Shown one piece after another: positions 4,485 through 12,303 of a stretch of 39,224 bases of DNA. How positions within the stretch are numbered: position 1 is the first letter of the stretch; the number at the start of each line of letters is the position of its first letter. Location: sequence record MZ398247.1, one strand, 5' to 3'. The notes beneath the pieces are model-generated. The model searched no databases, was not told the origin of the DNA, and worked only from the letters and a program-made list of their open reading frames with translations. Made by a program: the position numbers and the translations under genes. The stretch is from Enterobacteria phage IME177.

Positions 4485-4919
4485 ATGCTCGAATTTTTAA
4501 AGAGAGCGGCTCCGTGGCTACTTGCAGCAGTGATGTTTGCTGGTGGCTACCACACCGCTAACAATAAGTGGGAGGCTAAAGTAAATGAAGAATACATCAC
4601 GAAACTTGAGGCACGAGAGAGTCAACGAACTGCTATCCAAGCACGAGTCGATGAAGTCTCAGCGGAGTGGCAGGACAAGATGTCCTCGCTGGAAGGCTCT
4701 ACTGATAGGATTATTAATGACCTTAACCGCGATAACAAGCGGCTGCTCGTCAAAGTCAAGACCTCAGGTCTCAGCGAGCCAGATTACAGTCGATGCTTCC
4801 CTAATGGTAGAGTCGAACTACACCCAGAAACTTCTAAAAGTCTTATCCGAATAACGCAAGAAGCTGACCTTAAGGAGAAAGCTCTACAGGAAACCATAAG
4901 GAGGTTGCGTGGCGAATAA
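4485..4919 (+). CDS. gp18.5: Rz-like i-spanin (gp18.5-like)
   Basis: 144 aa, N-terminal TM segment then coiled-coil-like charged sequence; Rz1-like ORF embedded in +1 frame; T7 gp18.5 position. Confidence 0.8.
4585..4854 (+). CDS. gp18.7: Rz1-like o-spanin lipoprotein embedded in the i-spanin gene (gp18.7-like); true start may be internal
   Basis: +1 frame ORF inside 4485-4919; ...[23 protein letters not shown] contains a lipobox (ITSGC) and resembles T7 gp18.7 as recalled. Confidence 0.6.
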   Translation: MKNTSRNLRHERVNELLSKHESMKSQRSGRTRCPRWKALLIGLLMTLTAITSGCSSKSRPQVSASQITVDASLMVESNYTQKLLKVLSE

Positions 4920-6678
4920 GAAAACACCTGCTGAAAGACAGGCAGAAATGACCCAAAGGATGAGGGATGACTTCGTGTTCTTCATCTTCGTTCTATGGAA
5001 AGCTCTGAGCCTTCCTGTTCCAACACGCTGCCAGATAGATATGTGTAAGAAGCTGGCGGCTGGAGATAATCGACGCTTCATCCTTCAAGCATTCCGTGGT
5101 ATTGGAAAGTCGTTCCTGACCTGTGGTTTCGTGGTCTGGAAGTTATGGAATAACCCGGACTTGAAGTTCATGATTGTGTCGGCCTCAAAGGAACGAGCTG
5201 ATGCTAACTCCATATTCATCAAGCGAATCATCGACCTCATGCCTCAGCTTCAGGAACTCAAACCTAAGCAAGGGCAGCGAGATGCGGTTATCAGCTTCGA
5301 CGTTGGACCAGCCAAGCCAGACCACTCACCTTCGGTTAAGTCCGTTGGTATCACTGGTCAGTTGACTGGTAGTCGTGCTGACATCCTGATTGCCGATGAC
5401 GTGGAGGTTCCAAACAACTCAGCGACTCAGGCTGCACGAGACCGCCTGTCAGAGCTTGTGAAAGAGTTCGACGCTATCCTGAAGCCGGGAGGTACAATCA
5501 TTTATCTGGGTACTCCTCAGAACGAGATGACCCTGTACCGTGAGTTGGAAGGTCGTGGGTACACCACTACTATCTGGCCTGCTCGTTATCCACGAGACAG
5601 AAAGGACTGGCAGTCTTACGGCGACCGTCTGGCACCGATGCTTCAGGCAGAGCTGGAAGAGGACCCTGAGTCCTTCTACTGGCGTCCGACCGATGAAGTA
5701 CGATTTGATGATACGGACCTGAAGGAACGTGAGCTGTCCTATGGTAAAGCTGGCTTCGCTCTACAGTTCATGCTTAACCCTAACCTGAGTGATGCTGAGA
5801 AGTACCCTCTGAAGCTCCGTGACCTTATCGTAGCCGACTTGGACCCAGCGTCTAGCCCAATGGTATACCAATGGCTTCCTAACCCTCAGAACAAGCGTGA
5901 GGACGTTCCTAACGTTGGACTCATGGGTGACTCATACCACACGTATCAGACTGTAGGTTCTGCCTTCAGTTCGTACACCCAGAAGATTCTGGTCATTGAC
6001 CCTAGTGGTCGTGGTAAAGATGAAACTGGTTATGCGGTACTGTCCCAGCTCAACGGCTACATCTTCGCTATGGAAGTTGGCGGTATGCGAGGTGGCTATG
6101 AAGACTCTACGCTGGAAGCCTTGGCTAAGATTGGTCGTAAGTGGAAGGTCAACGAATACGTCATTGAGGGTAACTTCGGTGATGGTATGTACCTTGAGCT
6201 ATTCAAGCCTGTAGCTTCCCGTATTCATCCTGCTGCTGTAACTGAAGTGAAGAGTAAGGGTCAGAAGGAACTCCGCATCTGTGACGTTCTGGAGCCTATC
6301 ATGGGGTCTCACCGACTTATCGTCAACGCTTCTGCTATCGTCCAAGACTACCAGACAGCCTCTGACAAGGATGGTGTGCGTAACCCTATCTACTCTCTCT
6401 TCTATCAGATGACCCGTATCTCTCGTGAACGTGGAGCACTGGCACACGATGACCGACTTGATGCGCTGGCTATCGGTGTACAGTTCTTCGTTGAGTCTAT
6501 GGCTAAGGATGCCAACAAAGGCGAACGTGAAGTCACTGAGGAGTGGCTGGAGGAACAGATGGAGAACCCACGGAAAGGCTTCGAGTCCATCCACACTGAG
6601 TTCTGGGACAATGGGGTCCGGGTAACTCACGATACGGACGACGAGCTGGGGCTAGGGTCCTACGTTACGTTCCACTAG
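4909..6678 (+). CDS. gp19: terminase large subunit (gp19-like), probable GTG start
   Basis: 589 aa; RBS ataaggagg; ...[13 protein letters not shown]..., [40 protein letters not shown] colinear with T7 gp19 as recalled. Confidence 0.93.
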
Positions 6679-6795: not shown

Positions 6796-6854
6796 ACCCC
6801 CGGTTACTTATAGTATTACTGTAGTGAATATACATATGCAGACTTTATGCAAGA

Positions 6855-6931
6855 CCTTAGGAGGCAGACTCCGAGTTCTTACCTAAGGCTTGCACCGATG
6901 GAAGGAGGGTGATATTAATCATAATCCCTCC
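6855..6931 (+). promoter_or_regulatory. two hairpins downstream of phiOR-like promoter (7-bp IR ccttagg/cctaagg; 6-bp IR ggaggg/ccctcc around a palindromic AT-rich loop)
   Basis: Inverted repeats 6855-6861/6882-6888 and 6904-6909/6926-6931 read directly from the sequence; region corresponds to the T7 right-end packaging/junction region. Confidence 0.4.
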
Positions 6932-6975
6932 AATACAGATAGTCACCGACCATAGATACAGGAGGTATGTAGCAT

Positions 6976-7134
6976 ATGGCAAAGACCAAAGCTGTACTTA
7001 AAGCTCTGGCGACCAATCGAGCTACATACAGGTTTCTTGCTGCTGTTCTACTTGCTGCTGGCGTTACTGCTGGAAGTAAGTGGGTCGGGTGGGTCGAGAC
7101 TCTCGTATGTTCTCTGGTGTCTCAGTGTAATTAA
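6976..7134 (+). CDS. small hydrophobic protein (gp19.5-position ORF)
   Basis: 52-codon ORF with strong RBS caggagg 8 nt upstream; hydrophobic core LAAVLLAAGVTAG; last ORF before the genome-end region. Below the 60-aa cutoff of the ORF track. Confidence 0.45.
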   Translation: MAKTKAVLKALATNRATYRFLAAVLLAAGVTAGSKWVGWVETLVCSLVSQCN

Positions 7135-7167
7135 CGCAATCATGGTAACGATTCATGAGCGGAAGAC

Positions 7168-7210
7168 CTAAGGTCAGTACGTGGATAAAGACTCACTCTA
7201 CTGACCTTAG
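7168..7210 (+). promoter_or_regulatory. perfect 12-bp inverted repeat (ctaaggtcagta / tactgaccttag) with 19-nt loop
   Basis: Read directly; lies in non-coding DNA between the last late gene and the putative terminal repeat. Confidence 0.4.
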
Positions 7211-7372
7211 CTACTGTAGTCAAGGACTTTAGGTAACACCTTAATAGAAGCTCACCTAGGGTCATCCTACTTATTGGTCTATCCTAGTGTCGCCTGACCT
7301 ACGGTCCTTGACCTACAGTAGCTGCCACCTACGGTCACTCGATGAGTTTTGGACCAAAAGTTTGAGACCACA

Positions 7373-7590
7373 TCTCACAGTTCAAGAACCTCAAGTCTCC
7401 CCATAGGCCCTCTTTAAGTCCAGACCAAAGGCCCTACCCGTTACTGCTCCTTGCAGTCACAGCCAGTCTATCATAAGGTTAGACCGATGGTCAAGACGTT
7501 AGGTCAACTATAGGTCTAGGCTATGGCTGGAGGTCAGGACGATAGGTAGGGACTATGGGTCTGTCTCTGAGTCTCTATCTGTATAACCAT
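7373..7590 (+). repeat. probable direct terminal repeat / physical genome end region (single copy in this permuted assembly); boundaries approximate
   Basis: tctcacagttcaagaacctcaagtctccccatagg resembles the T7 left end (TCTCACAGTGTACGGACCTAAAGTTCCCCCATAGGGGG as recalled); flanked on both sides by ACCTAC(A/G)GT short repeats, as the T7 terminal repeat is flanked by CCTAAAG-type repeats. Confidence 0.4.
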
Positions 7591-7593
7591 AGG

Positions 7594-7623
7594 TCCTACA
7601 ACCTACAGTCCTACAACCTACAG
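7594..7623 (+). repeat. perfect tandem direct repeat, 15 bp x 2 (tcctacaacctacag), part of an array of ACCTAC(A/G)GT motifs (also 7305-7345, 7630-7670)
   Basis: Exact repeat read from the sequence; at least 7 copies of the core motif between 7305 and 7670. Confidence 0.7.
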
Positions 7624-7794
7624 TCTAACTAACCTACAGTATCAACCATAAGACACCAACACCTACGGTCATAGACCCACAGTTAATAGACACAAAGCTA
7701 TAGACTTGAGGTCAACGACATGTTAGTCAAAGACTATATCCTATTACACCATGGGGCCGACGATAGCTTAATCAATATTATTTAAGATTACCTA

Positions 7795-7823
7795 TTGACT
7801 ACAGGTCCAGACTATGGCTTAAT
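7795..7823 (+). promoter_or_regulatory. sigma70-type early promoter (A1-like): -35 TTGACT, 17-bp spacer, -10 CTTAAT
   Basis: ttgactacaggtccagactatggcttaat parallels T7 A1 (TTGACTtaaagtctaacctatagGATACT as recalled); downstream leader resembles the T7 A1-A2 interval. Confidence 0.45.
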
Positions 7824-7935
7824 AGCTTCCGTCAACACGACACGGCAACAACCGGATAGTGAAGACGCCGGGTCATCCCGGTTAAGTAGACAGCCTGATA
7901 AGTCATACGAACAACAGGCAGATGACAGAAAGTAG

Positions 7936-7965
7936 TTGACAAGATGTACCGACTTAAAGTAGTAT
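7936..7965 (+). promoter_or_regulatory. sigma70-type early promoter (A2/A3-like): -35 TTGACA, -10 TAGTAT
   Basis: ttgacaagatgtaccgacttaaagtagtatgtaccac parallels T7 A3 (TTGACAacatgaagtaaacacggTACGATgtaccac as recalled). Confidence 0.55.
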
Positions 7966-8173
7966 GTACCACATCAACACGAAACAACGGTGACGACCAA
8001 CACTGAAACGGTCTACCTGAAGTCCTCTGACTGAAGGGAATGCTCTTTAACAATCTGGATAAACTCTTAATGTGCGCCGACAGTGATTAACTACAGGGTC
8101 TTTGAGTCTACATCTGAAGGCCCTGACTGATAGTCACTAACATACACACAATTAACTTTGAGAGGATATAACT

Positions 8174-8677
8174 ATGGAACGTAACGCTAACGCATACTAT
8201 GAGCTGCTGGCTGCAACCGTTGAGGCATTTATCGAGCGTATTCAGTACGACCACCTGACTAAAGATGATGACTACAGCGATGCGCTGCATGAGGTCGTAG
8301 ACAGTCAGGTCCCGCTCTATTACCACGAGATTTTCACGGTGATGGCTGCTGATGGTATAGACCACGAGTTCGAAGACTCTGGGCTGATGCCTGAAACCAA
8401 GGACGTAACGCGTATCCTACAAGCTCGCATCTATGAGGCACTTTATAACGACGTGTCTAATAGCTTGGATGTAGTCTGGTTTGAGGATGAAGAGGCAGAC
8501 GAAGAGGATGAATATTGGGTAGTTGACGCTAAAACAGGCGCAATAATTGTGCAAGCTGTAGCTCTTGAGGTCGCTACTGCATGTGCCAAGGTCAACTATG
8601 TGATAGGTCGCCACCTGAAGGTGGAAGACATCAATGATAACGTAGTGTTCGACCCTGCGGCTGAGGACTGCGAGTGA
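8174..8677 (+). CDS. gp0.3: Ocr-like anti-restriction DNA-mimic protein (gp0.3-like) with an extra ~50-aa C-terminal extension
   Basis: 167 aa, first gene after the early promoters; [44 protein letters not shown] matches the core of T7 Ocr as recalled; highly acidic; T7 Ocr is 117 aa. Confidence 0.8.
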
Positions 8678-8893
8678 TGATAACTTACGGTTTATGCCAG
8701 CACCACGTCACCAACGCCCGGATTTTGGTCAAGACCGGGCGGTTAAACCACGAGGAGGCCATGCGTCTCTTGAAAGTGGTCTACAGGAGGCGCAAGCGCA
8801 TACACGACAGCCTACACGCTGAGTGATAAACGAGAGGTCATCTGACTGATAGGTGGCCTCAAAGATTATCACTTACATTGATAGGAGTTAACT

Positions 8894-8998
8894 ATGAGCA
8901 CTGCAATCATCTGGACTATCTCAGGCTTCGTAGCGTGGGGAATGTTTACTCTAGTCTGCAAACTACCGGTCCTTACTCAACTGTTATGGGGCTTATGA
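8894..8998 (+). CDS. small hydrophobic early protein (34 aa)
   Basis: ATG preceded by RBS ggag; sequence MSTAIIWTISGFVAWGMFTLVCKLPVLTQLLWGL is membrane-like; stop overlaps next start (ATGA). Not in ORF track because <60 aa. Confidence 0.4.
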   Translation: MSTAIIWTISGFVAWGMFTLVCKLPVLTQLLWGL

Positions 8999-9198
8999 CT
9001 ATGAGTATCGCACTATTGATAGCCATAGGCTATGGACTTATCGCCTACGTGCTGGTGAGAGACATCAACAAAGCGCGTAAAGTCTACAAATTAAACTATG
9101 TACGTCTGGGTCGCTGGACTGTACGTCAACCTAACGGACGATTCCTGCGCAATTTAGCGAACGTCTGGGATATAGCAACTCTTGGGAGCAAACTGTAA
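8995..9198 (+). CDS. small early membrane protein (67 aa)
   Basis: In-frame ATG of track ORF 8878-9198; TM segment SIALLIAIGYGLIAYVLV followed by basic tail; translationally coupled to flanking ORFs. Confidence 0.45.
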   Translation: MTMSIALLIAIGYGLIAYVLVRDINKARKVYKLNYVRLGRWTVRQPNGRFLRNLANVWDIATLGSKL

Positions 9199-9524
9199 TG
9201 AACAAGTCATACGGGATTAATCTGGTACACTCTATGGACGCAGAAATGAACATGTTAAGCCTACTGGCTACCGGGTATCGTCACGGAACGTCAAGTCACA
9301 CCGCACGTCAACAGCAGGAGCGGGACCGTGTACTACAGGCGCGACTCCGGGCAGAGGGCCATAAGTCCGAACTGATGTGTCTGGCGTATGGTGGACGACC
9401 AATCACCGACGATGGTAAACTTCTGGTATCAGGCTGGAAGGCGATAGACCAACGGTCAACCATCAAGCACACGACTCACGGTGACTTCAGCCATCTCCAC
9501 GCTAACCCACTGATATGCAAGTGA
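9198..9524 (+). CDS. hypothetical early protein (108 aa) at the position of T7 gene 0.7; no kinase motifs
   Basis: ORF starts with TAATG overlap of upstream stop; last gene before the RNA polymerase gene; no similarity recognised. Confidence 0.5.
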   Translation: MNKSYGINLVHSMDAEMNMLSLLATGYRHGTSSHTARQQQERDRVLQARLRAEGHKSELMCLAYGGRPITDDGKLLVSGWKAIDQRSTIKHTTHGDFSHLHANPLICK

Positions 9525-9529
9525 TTATG

Positions 9530-9552
9530 ACTTAACTATCACTATAGGACTC
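9530..9552 (+). promoter_or_regulatory. phage RNA polymerase promoter directly upstream of the RNA polymerase gene, predicted +1 at 9547
   Basis: cttaactatcactataggactca; 75 nt upstream of the gene 1 start codon. Confidence 0.75.
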
Positions 9553-9621
9553 AAGGTCTAAGACTCCAAGTGAAAGACCAAAGAGACTTTAAGTGAAAGA
9601 CTAATAACAAGGACTTTAAGT

Positions 9622-12303
9622 ATGAGCGTCATCTCTATTGATAAACACGACTTCTCTGATGTGTCGAACGCCATTGAGCCGTTTAACCTGCTGGCCGACC
9701 ACTACGGGCAAGACCTTGCAGTCAAACAGCTTCAGCTTGAGCATGAGGCATATACAGAAGGCGAGCGACGTTTCATCAAGAACCTTGAGCGCCAGACCGA
9801 GCGCGGGGAACTGGCAGACAATCAGGTCGCCAAGCCTTTGATGCAGACTCTGGTCCCTAAGATTGCGCAAGCCGTCAGGGAGTGGCACGAAGGCCTAGAC
9901 GGGAAGCTGTCAACCTCGCGTCCTAGCGTAGCGTTCACCATGTTGAGCACTGAAGAGAAGGCCGTAAAGGACCGCTCTATGCGCATCTCCTGTGAGTCCG
10001 CTGCGGTTATCATACTGAAGGTCATACTCTCCAAGCTGGTCAAGCCTGAAGGGATACCGATTACACCGATGGCCTCCGCGATAGGTCGCACACTTGAGGA
10101 CGAAATCCGCTTCGGTCGCATCCGTGACAAAGAGAAGGAGCACTTCAAGAAGGCGATAGCTGAGAACCTGAACAAGCGAGCTGGGGCATCCTACAAGAAA
10201 GCCTACATGCAAGCGGTCGAGGCGTCCATGCTGGAGCAAGGCCAACTGGAAGATGCATGGGGGACTTGGAGTCCTACAGAGGCTGTCCACGTTGGCATCA
10301 AGATGCTCGAGATTGTCATCCAGTCAACACAACTGGTCGAGCTTAAGCGGTACGGTGCTGGTAATGCAGCGGCTGACGTAGAGATGGTCCACCTGTCAGA
10401 CTTCTGGGTCAAGAAGATGGCACAACGAGGATTCAGCCTTGCGGGTATCGCTCCAGTCTACCAGCCTTGCGTCGTTCCGCCTAAGCCGTGGACTGGTGTC
10501 GTAGGTGGTGGGTACTGGGCCAAAGGTCGCAGACCGTTACCATTGATTCGCTTAGGGTCTAAGTCTGCGGTAGCACGTTATGAAGACGTATACATGCCTG
10601 AAGTCTATGACGCTGTGAACATCATTCAGAATACACCTTGGAAAGTTAACAAGAAGGTATTGGACGTGGTGAACATGGTCGAGAAGCTGAACAACACGCC
10701 TATTGATGACATCCCTCAGATGGAACCGCTGAAGCCTGAGGACTATGCTGGTGAAACCGAGGAGGAACTCAAGGCATGGAAGAAGGCTGCTGCTGGTATC
10801 TATCGCCGCGAGAAGGCCAGACAGTCACGCAGATTGTCCATGAGTTTCATCGTATCACAGGCCAACAAGTTCTCACAGTTTAAGGCCATCTGGTTCCCGT
10901 ACAACATGGATTGGCGAGGTCGTGTCTACGCTGTCCCGATGTTCAACCCTCAGGGTAACGACATGCAGAAGGGTCTACTGACTCTGGCGGTCGGAAAGCC
11001 TATCGGGGCGGATGGTTTCAAATGGCTTAAAGTCCACACCGCCAACTGCGCGGGTGTCGATAAGGTAACCTTTGAGGAGCGTATCAAATGGGTGGAAGAC
11101 AATCACGAGAACATTCTGGCAGCAGCCAAATCACCGATGGACAGCATCGAGTGGTGGGGGAGTATGGACAGCCCCTTCTGCTTCCTAGCGGCTTGCTTCG
11201 AGTATTCTGGGGTGATGAACCATGGCTTGACCTACAATTGCTCACTTCCGATTGCCTTCGACGGCTCGTGTTCGGGGATTCAGCACTTCAGCGCGATGCT
11301 GAGGGACCACGTAGGCGGACATGCAGTGAACTTAACGCCGTCTGGTCAGGTGCAGGACATCTACCGTATAGTCTCAGACCGTGTGTCAGACCAGTTGAAA
11401 GAGCTATTACTGAGCGGTACGGACGACGAGCTGGTGACCGTAGAGGACAAGAAGACTGGGGAAATCAGCGAACGCCTGAAGCTTGGGACCAAGAGTCTTG
11501 CGCGTCAGTGGCTGCAATTCGGTATGTCTCGCTCGGTCACTAAGCGCTCGGTCATGACTCTGGCCTACGGGTCGAAAGAGTATGGGTTCGCCGACCAAGT
11601 GTTCGAAGACACCGTGATGCCAGCGATTGACTCCGGTAAGGGAGCAATGTTCACCGAGCCAAGCCAAGCGTCTCGCTTCATGGCTAAGATGATTTGGGAA
11701 GCTGTGAGTGTGACAGTAGTTGCTGCGGTTGACGCGATGAAGTGGCTTCAAGGTGCCGCCAAGCTGCTGGCTGCTGAAGTGAAGGACAAGAAGACTGGTG
11801 AAATCCTGAAGCCATGCCTTCCGGTACACTGGGTCACACCTGATGGGTTCCCGGTCTGGCAGGAATACCGCAAGAAGGATACCACTCGTCTGAACCTGAT
11901 GTTCTTAGGGTCCTTCAACCTTCAACCTACGGTCAACAAAGGTACGAAGAAAGAGCTGGACAAGCACAAGCAGGAGTCAGGCATTAGCCCGAACTTCGTC
12001 CACTCACAAGATGGTAGCCACCTCCGCAAGACTGTAGTCCACACTCACCGAAAGTATGGCGTGATGTCATTCGCAGTGATTCACGATAGCTTCGGGACCA
12101 TCCCGGCTGACGCTGAGTATCTGTTCCGTGGCGTCCGTGAGACGATGGTAGAGACTTACCGCGATAACGATGTGCTGCTTGACTTCTACGAGCAGTTTGA
12201 ATACCAGCTTCATGAAAGTCAGCGCGACAAGTTGCCTGAGCTTCCGAAGAAAGGTAAACTGAATATCGAAGACATCTTGTCTTCAGACTTTGCATTCGCT
12301 TAA
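9622..12303 (+). CDS. gp1: single-subunit DNA-directed RNA polymerase (T7 gp1-like)
   Basis: 893 aa; colinear with T7 RNAP as recalled, including catalytic-Asp motifs AFDGSCSGIQHFSAMLRD and VIHDSFGTIPADA, specificity-loop region LNLMFLGSFNLQPTVNKGTK, C-terminal FAFA. Confidence 0.97.
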   Translation: MSVISIDKHDFSDVSNAIEPFNLLADHYGQDLAVKQLQLEHEAYTEGERRFIKNLERQTERGELADNQVAKPLMQTLVPKIAQAVREWHEGLDGKLSTSRPSVAFTMLSTEEKAVKDRSMRISCESAAVIILKVILSKLVKPEGIPITPMASAIGRTLEDEIRFGRIRDKEKEHFKKAIAENLNKRAGASYKKAYMQAVEASMLEQGQLEDAWGTWSPTEAVHVGIKMLEIVIQSTQLVELKRYGAGNAAADVEMVHLSDFWVKKMAQRGFSLAGIAPVYQPCVVPPKPWTGVVGGGYWAKGRRPLPLIRLGSKSAVARYEDVYMPEVYDAVNIIQNTPWKVNKKVLDVVNMVEKLNNTPIDDIPQMEPLKPEDYAGETEEELKAWKKAAAGIYRREKARQSRRLSMSFIVSQANKFSQFKAIWFPYNMDWRGRVYAVPMFNPQGNDMQKGLLTLAVGKPIGADGFKWLKVHTANCAGVDKVTFEERIKWVEDNHENILAAAKSPMDSIEWWGSMDSPFCFLAACFEYSGVMNHGLTYNCSLPIAFDGSCSGIQHFSAMLRDHVGGHAVNLTPSGQVQDIYRIVSDRVSDQLKELLLSGTDDELVTVEDKKTGEISERLKLGTKSLARQWLQFGMSRSVTKRSVMTLAYGSKEYGFADQVFEDTVMPAIDSGKGAMFTEPSQASRFMAKMIWEAVSVTVVAAVDAMKWLQGAAKLLAAEVKDKKTGEILKPCLPVHWVTPDGFPVWQEYRKKDTTRLNLMFLGSFNLQPTVNKGTKKELDKHKQESGISPNFVHSQDGSHLRKTVVHTHRKYGVMSFAVIHDSFGTIPADAEYLFRGVRETMVETYRDNDVLLDFYEQFEYQLHESQRDKLPELPKKGKLNIEDILSSDFAFA

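Follow-up and report, generated by a model that had tools for sequence, protein, structure and literature searches.

What, if anything, does an Ocr protein gain from a second domain near its C-terminal end? Ocr of phage T7 is the textbook DNA-mimic anti-restriction protein and also a trigger of "anti-anti-restriction" abortive-infection systems. Its acidic dimer passes for bent B-DNA and fills the groove in which type I restriction–modification (R-M) and BREX methyltransferase complexes hold their DNA. A preliminary description of Enterobacteria phage IME177 had noted that the Ocr-like protein of this phage runs on for roughly 50 residues that T7 Ocr lacks, and had suggested that these could be a fused second anti-defense function or a decoy/modifier domain. 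We analyzed the gene in the window, by which we mean the whole 39,224-nt stretch (record MZ398247.1), a circularly permuted and essentially complete K1F-like genome belonging to the genus Kayfunavirus, a T7 relative. The early region contains the following features:

7936..7965, + strand: sigma-70-like early promoter match, TTGACA-18-TAGTAT (consensus scan, 10/12), ~210 nt upstream of ocr.
8160..8166, + strand: ribosome-binding site GAGAGGA, 8 nt ahead of the ocr start, read in the sequence; an RBS is annotated at the equivalent site in phage Pipis.
8174..8677, + strand: gene 0.3 homologue (ocr), long allele, with an ATG start, 167 aa and a stop codon (ORF list, sequence).
8677..8826, + strand: gp0.4-like gene, 49 aa (ORF; phrog_5058, E=1e-24).
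8878-9198: small ORF matching phrog_2385, probably a membrane protein.
9198-9524: small ORF matching phrog_7066.

The promoter-like site is the sole sigma-70-like match on the + strand of the interval scanned (6800-9700), and it is a pattern match only, in a region where matches are not above shuffled expectation. Downstream of it, ocr is the first conserved ORF, and in this approximate sense the gene is the "first early gene" of the preliminary description. It is followed by the gp0.4-like gene, the two small ORFs and the phage RNA polymerase gene (9622-12303); a gp0.7-type protein kinase is absent between ocr and the RNA polymerase gene (8678-9621), an interval with small ORFs only. The ATG of the gp0.4-like gene overlaps the ocr stop codon (TGATG), suggesting translational coupling of the two genes, and its Shine-Dalgarno sequence sits inside the last ocr codons. 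Orthologues of the 49-aa gene in five related loci (L005, L006 and L076-78) carry a precomputed match to PF26807 (Phage_T7_GP04); BLASTP of the gene product from the window against T7 gp0.4 itself gave no alignment. Upstream, the early region is preceded by a 589-aa ORF (4909-6678), whose counterpart in related loci carries a terminase domain match (T7, PF22530), and by a conserved 52-aa ORF (6976-7134). Given that the window is permuted and that these two ORFs lie upstream of the early genes, we expect the physical genome ends at roughly 7140-7900.

The Ocr protein itself can be divided into three protein segments and a short tail, with the cassette discussed below spanning the last part of the linker, the C-domain and the first residues of the tail:

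8174..8482, + strand: Ocr DNA-mimic domain, residues 1-103, net charge -16 (PF08684, T7 Ocr structure, AF2, charge, dN/dS).
8483..8512, + strand: poly-acidic linker, residues 104-113, net charge -9 (unstructured in AF2, length varying between alleles, dN/dS).
8504..8662, + strand: in-frame cassette of 159 nt, 53 codons, in long but not in short Kayfunavirus alleles (DNA alignment).
8513..8656, + strand: accessory C-domain, residues 114-161, net charge -2 (AF2, conservation, dN/dS).
8657..8674, + strand: acidic tail AAEDCE, common to short alleles (…EEDCE); it overlaps the Shine-Dalgarno GAGGA of the next gene (8663-8667), and an RBS is annotated equivalently in Pipis.

Membership of the first segment in the Ocr family was apparent from sequence, homology to the solved T7 Ocr, predicted helical fold, acidity and position as the earliest gene. 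The Pfam family PF08684 ("DNA mimic ocr") matched residues 8-94 with E=9.4e-29 and 100.3 bits (cut-off 25), and phrog_2568 ("ocr-like anti-restriction") matched with E=2e-53. A phmmer search of the PDB returned T7 Ocr (1s7z and nine further entries) at E=8e-24, with residues 11-113 of the query aligned to residues 11-116 of the 117 in T7 Ocr; local alignment with T7 Ocr gave 55% identity over 87 residues. The profile and PDB sequence searches (PF08684, 1s7z) thus agreed on Ocr, bearing out the earlier claim that the first ~110 aa are Ocr-like, and the peptide strings quoted in the preliminary description are all present in the translation of 8174..8677. At the nucleotide level, identity of the gene to those annotated "ocr-like anti-restriction" in Kayfunavirus phages (vB_EcoP-R1, Pipis, LM33_P1 and many others) is 96-98%. 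Several deposited genomes in GenBank (hits H16, H18, H22, H64 and H70) label the gene "Phage protein kinase," "protein kinase" or "similar to N4-like RNA polymerase," and we found no sequence support for these names.

The full-length AlphaFold2 (AF2) model has an all-helical Ocr part with a long last helix (helices 7-26, 35-59, 62-65 and 75-93), at a pLDDT that is moderate (52-85) since the protein was modeled as a monomer. Net charge is -16 for the Ocr domain (pI 4.16) and -30 for the whole protein, compared with -28 for T7 Ocr. The likeness to T7 Ocr (gp0.3, PF08684, 1S7Z) is that of a homologue, with a similarly acidic composition (pI about 4.1), a conserved F54 and the same genomic position, followed by a gp0.4-like gene and the gene for RNA polymerase. 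The two differ in that the last Ocr helix is predicted to be ~10 residues shorter in the window protein, and in that T7 Ocr stops at residue 117, where its acidic tail runs out, whereas the window protein has a 53-codon cassette in the tail. From the homology we infer that the Ocr of the window dimerizes and blocks type I R-M and BREX methyltransferases.

The alignment with T7 Ocr stops at residue 113, placing everything from Y114 onward beyond the end of T7 Ocr. The roughly 50 additional residues of the preliminary description were therefore correctly located: residues 114-167 (YWVVD...EDCE, 54 aa) extend past T7 Ocr and comprise a real domain. They are not purely a C-terminal addition, however, since the final EDCE is common to short alleles, and the extra sequence is better described as an internal cassette of 53 codons. 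It is bounded by a direct repeat, GAGGAT (8504-8509) and GAGGAC (8663-8668), of which the GAGGAC copy doubles as the Shine-Dalgarno of the downstream gene.

This cassette is polymorphic within the genus. Short-allele loci (L010-L016 and L018) are 84-97% identical to the window on either side and skip ~8496/8509-8662. They encode an Ocr of 110-114 aa that ends in …EEDCE as does the long form (114 aa compared with the 167 aa of the window). Short alleles include those of EcoDS1, CR44b, vB_EcoP_F, PE3-1, Vec13 and Bas105; their Ocr domain is indistinguishable from that of the window, and their EEDCE end and flanking genes are the same, the difference being the absence of 8504-8662. Among the best 60 phage records to a short-allele query, 32 aligned contiguously (short) and 28 with a gap (long), and the Kayfunavirus loci in IMG/VR were three long and eight short. 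In a neighbor-joining tree of Ocr-domain DNA, which carries no support values, long and short alleles were interleaved. The long architecture is common to several genera, which makes loss in the short Kayfunavirus alleles likelier than gain in the long ones. The short alleles have two junction types; these are no proof of two independent deletions, since a further slip of 12 nt within the acidic repeat could turn type A into type B. No residue of the Ocr domain differed systematically between 120 long and eight short alleles, and we found no early gene that co-varies with the allele and no compensating gene in short-allele phages. Such clean short alleles imply that the C-domain is dispensable as well as polymorphic. 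We consider the identification as Ocr and the description of the cassette virtually certain.

The segment within the cassette is predicted to be a compact domain on a flexible tether. Residues 94-113 have no secondary structure in the AF2 model (mean pLDDT of 58 at 101-110, and <50 at 106-109), and residues 114-159 follow as strand-strand-helix-strand-strand with a pLDDT of 84-88. Modeled in isolation (a 56-aa construct with 40 homologous segments), the C-domain reached a pLDDT of 92.9 and a pTM of 0.76, with strands at 3-7 and 13-18, a helix at 20-32, and strands at 37-40 and 46-48 of the construct. The 48 residues thus form a beta-hairpin, a helix and two short strands (beta-beta-alpha-beta-beta), and these models make it probable that the C-domain folds autonomously. 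With a net charge of -2 it is mildly acidic, and so is not simply further DNA-mimic surface.

Across 120 protein clusters, conservation of the C-domain equals that of the Ocr part. Pairwise Nei-Gojobori comparison of seven long alleles put dN/dS lowest in the Ocr part (0.19), at 0.30 in the C-domain and at 0.47 in the linker; synonymous divergence was alike in the three segments, which locates the constraint at the protein level. The C-domain is under purifying selection.

We then considered where else the C-domain occurs. A tblastn search of 50,697 phage records with the 54-residue segment found matches in 71 records, every one of them inside an ocr-like gene. K1F gp0.3 is among these records, its C-domain being 68% identical to that of the window. 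In a collection of 5.8 billion proteins there were 472 relatives, of which the best 120 were all 162-179 aa long and carried the C-domain; protein clusters with the C-domain number more than 120. The long Ocr proteins of K1F (gp0.3) and of other Kayfunaviruses (SH3, LM33_P1, CLB_P1, Pipis and vB_EcoP-R1) have the same architecture at 162-179 aa and do not differ in any essential respect. The window carries an unremarkable representative of an allele class that is already known and annotated, the K1F gp0.3-type Ocr. It is not an unusual variant of a single phage but the standard "long" gp0.3 allele of Kayfunavirus (K1F, SH3, LM33_P1, CLB_P1 and others, 71 phage records), annotated as "ocr-like anti-restriction" in GenBank/RefSeq. 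Full-text literature searches returned no experimental study of any long-form Ocr, nor any description of such cassette-like presence and absence within a genus. A characterized Ocr homologue with the extension, which would have counted against the preliminary description, was thus not encountered in these searches.

Diverged C-domains are also found, at the corresponding site, in the Ocr proteins of Stenotrophomonas phage IME15, Aeromonas phages PZL-Ah1, PZL-Ah8, PZL-Ah152 and avDM11-UST, Escherichia phage Ebrios and Kosakonia phage Kc166A. As in the window, the long Ocr of IME15, PZL-Ah1/Ah8/Ah152, Ebrios and Kc166A consists of the Ocr domain, an acidic linker and the C-domain. In these diverged phages the Ocr part is 76-78% identical to that of the window and the C-domain ~25-37% (local alignments of the C-domain gave 27% for IME15 and 37% for PZL-Ah152; the multiple alignment gave 22-25%). 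The pattern they share is W-x-V...G...[SD]-[LF]-E-x-A...G...V-E-D...P, and near-invariant surface residues, for example the VED motif, are kept across subtypes at only ~25% identity. A further difference in Ebrios is an early region (L075 154-2565) in which its long-form Ocr, here 174 aa, lies together with genes for a T3-type SAM hydrolase (SAMase) and a gp0.7-type kinase.

The C-domain is found only attached to Ocr, an association that could reflect limited search sensitivity for a fast-diverging domain of 48 residues. Two profile searches of the 5.8 billion proteins returned pieces of ocr genes only, and the C-domain was not found in plasmids, in complete E. coli genomes or in 185,579 species genomes. 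Neither the window nor any fetched locus contains a second copy. Two candidate stand-alone copies were rejected on inspection: P0122 is the downstream half of an ocr gene frameshifted by a +1 G, and P0125 is an internal-deletion remnant of ocr.

Comparison of the C-terminal segment with structural databases, which the preliminary description had suggested, yielded no relative of known function. The C-domain of the window and 15 diverse members had no match at meaningful E-values in Pfam, PHROGs, NCBIfam or PADLOC, and PDB sequences gave nothing consistent. The sole phmmer match among 1.84 billion representatives, P0121, is an Ig-like surface protein with 11 Big_3 repeats; its score adds up matches of ~20 bits each, and we dismissed it as spurious. 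Foldseek against the PDB returned nothing below E=0.6, and a fold search of BFVD returned only uncharacterized small phage proteins at E>=0.013; we read these fold similarities as the generic likeness of small alpha/beta domains. Among the closest known systems are the ClpS / ribosomal bL12 C-terminal domain fold, the T4 Dmd antitoxin and AcrIF9. The three helices on a three-stranded sheet and the N-degron pocket that mark a ClpS-like adaptor were not found in the C-domain, and membership in the T4 Dmd family was likewise rejected (Foldseek TM 0.37-0.39, E>1). No signature of a catalytic family was seen in the C-domain.

Several loci carry other rearrangements at the 3' end of gene 0.3. In L004 (2667-3180; also in L005 and L006), a +1 G insertion (TGGG to TGGGG) falls exactly at the Y-W|V-V boundary of Ocr and C-domain, which leaves Ocr just as long as its T7 counterpart (117 aa) and turns the C-domain into a separate, overlapping ORF of 59 codons; these three loci come from three sequencing runs of one study. 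In P0096 (167 aa), a natural allele, the reading frame passes from the C-domain, after ...GRHLK, into the end of the downstream gp0.4-like protein. Phage vB_EcoP_IMEP24 (L082 262-822) has a 186-aa Ocr in which the C-domain breaks off after its first strands and continues into unrelated …KDFKSKDEAIRYAVELAGG…; the gp0.4 position has no annotated gene in this phage, and the next CDS lies ~160 nt downstream. Contigs resembling Kosakonia phage Kc166A, from three samples (L076 3001-3174, L077 and L078), retain a 57-aa ocr remnant without the Ocr core, in which Ocr residues 1-11 run directly into the second half of the C-domain and the DNA mimic is deleted. Finally, a 37,555-bp IMG/VR contig (L057 906-1328) encodes a T7-type Ocr of 140 aa whose acidic tail is replaced by an unrelated sequence of 30 residues. 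Judged from these sequences, gene 0.3 is evidently prone to rearrangement at its 3' end.

How might such a domain act? In the T7 Ocr structure of Walkinshaw et al. (2002), the long last helix is reportedly directed from the dimer interface to the distal tip, and T7 Ocr tolerates C-terminal changes. In the explanation that we favor, the Ocr part would dimerize, pose as bent B-DNA and, early in infection, block the groove with which type I R-M and BREX methyltransferases bind DNA, and the flexible poly-acidic linker would tether the compact C-domain to it. By analogy with T7 Ocr, the dimer would carry a C-domain on both of its distal tips, at the points where flanking DNA would leave a bound enzyme, near the motor or nuclease subunits. 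The C-domain would then be a non-catalytic protein-binding module working in cis, providing an extra contact to the host complex that binds or senses Ocr; this contact may tune affinity or target range, and the domain would be dispensable for basic Ocr function. We give this explanation as a whole, an Ocr mimic with a tethered, cis-acting accessory binding module, a probability of roughly 45%.

The proposed cis-acting role in protein binding, taken on its own, is a tentative assignment that we hold with less than even confidence. It draws on the occurrence of the C-domain only on Ocr, its constant attachment point on a flexible linker, its divergence at a faster rate than the core, its lack of a catalytic signature and its removal from short alleles without adjustment elsewhere. 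Faster divergence between genera is as expected for a partner-specific surface. Against this role stand the frequent clean loss of the domain (32/60 best records and 8/11 IMG/VR loci are short) and the frameshift allele; frequent clean loss suggests that whatever the C-domain does is conditional or marginal. A more specific version, in which C-domains at the tips of the Ocr dimer neutralize an Ocr-sensing system (of PARIS, EcoR22I or Ronin type) or extend inhibition to another defense subunit that tracks along DNA, for example HsdR or a BREX or type III component, with the polymorphism a sign of an ongoing arms race, seems to us doubtful.

Several other explanations have to be weighed against a cis-acting accessory module. 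That the extension is an error of sequencing or assembly, or a read-through joining a neighboring ORF, might be suspected from the indel-prone, GA-rich linker and from the one lineage in which a +1 G shifts the frame right at the domain boundary. However, 71 independent phage records and more than 120 protein clusters (162-179 aa) share the same uninterrupted frame, with conservation at the protein level (dN/dS) and a confidently predicted fold, and we regard an artefact as excluded for practical purposes. The C-domain could instead be a separate anti-defense or host-takeover protein (like T4 Dmd or an anti-CRISPR), fused to Ocr for early, high-level expression and directed at a target unrelated to that of Ocr. 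We think this unlikely, because the domain never stands alone or in a fusion to anything other than Ocr across phage records, the 5.8 billion proteins, plasmids and genomes, its only apparently free copies having arisen from ocr itself, one by frameshift and one by deletion; because three subtypes at ~25-37% identity keep the same attachment point; and because the resemblance to Dmd is weak.

Two further readings were considered. In one, the C-domain would act as a shield, preventing recognition of Ocr by PARIS AriA, EcoR22I or Ronin through steric masking or through binding of the sensor, and the polymorphism would be the footprint of an arms race. Ocr is a documented trigger of the abortive-infection systems PARIS, EcoR22I (type III) and Ronin; the C-domain diverges faster between genera than the Ocr core, and the cassette is gained or lost within a genus; and the deletion remnants in Kc166A-like phages show that selection against carrying Ocr does occur. 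This support is purely circumstantial, though, and F54, at which a change lets T7 escape PARIS, is the same in long and short alleles, while a long flexible tether would make a poor steric mask. A search of the literature for data on the sensitivity of Kayfunavirus to PARIS returned none. We accordingly rate shielding as rather improbable. The same low rating goes to the other reading, in which the C-domain has no host target and affects folding, solubility, proteolytic stability or expression of Ocr (or of the coupled downstream gene), or is nearly neutral. It would fit with about half of the closest Kayfunavirus records doing without the domain and without visible compensation, with the frameshift allele truncated to 117 aa and assembled from three runs, with a cassette that ends in the ribosome-binding site of the next gene, and with no functional homologue of the C-domain being known. 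Yet a passenger sits poorly with a dN/dS of 0.30, with surface residues of the VED type kept across subtypes, and with retention of the module in several genera; and as short alleles share the 3' end, coupling to the next gene needs no cassette.

If the C-domain proves inert, the finding amounts to a correct description of a known gene. The long and short natural alleles constitute a natural experiment on how far a DNA mimic reaches or how visible it is. Some Kayfunaviruses, among them K1F, LM33_P1 and CLB_P1, are used as therapeutic candidates, and it would be of practical value to learn whether the allele alters their host range on strains with type I R-M, BREX or PARIS.
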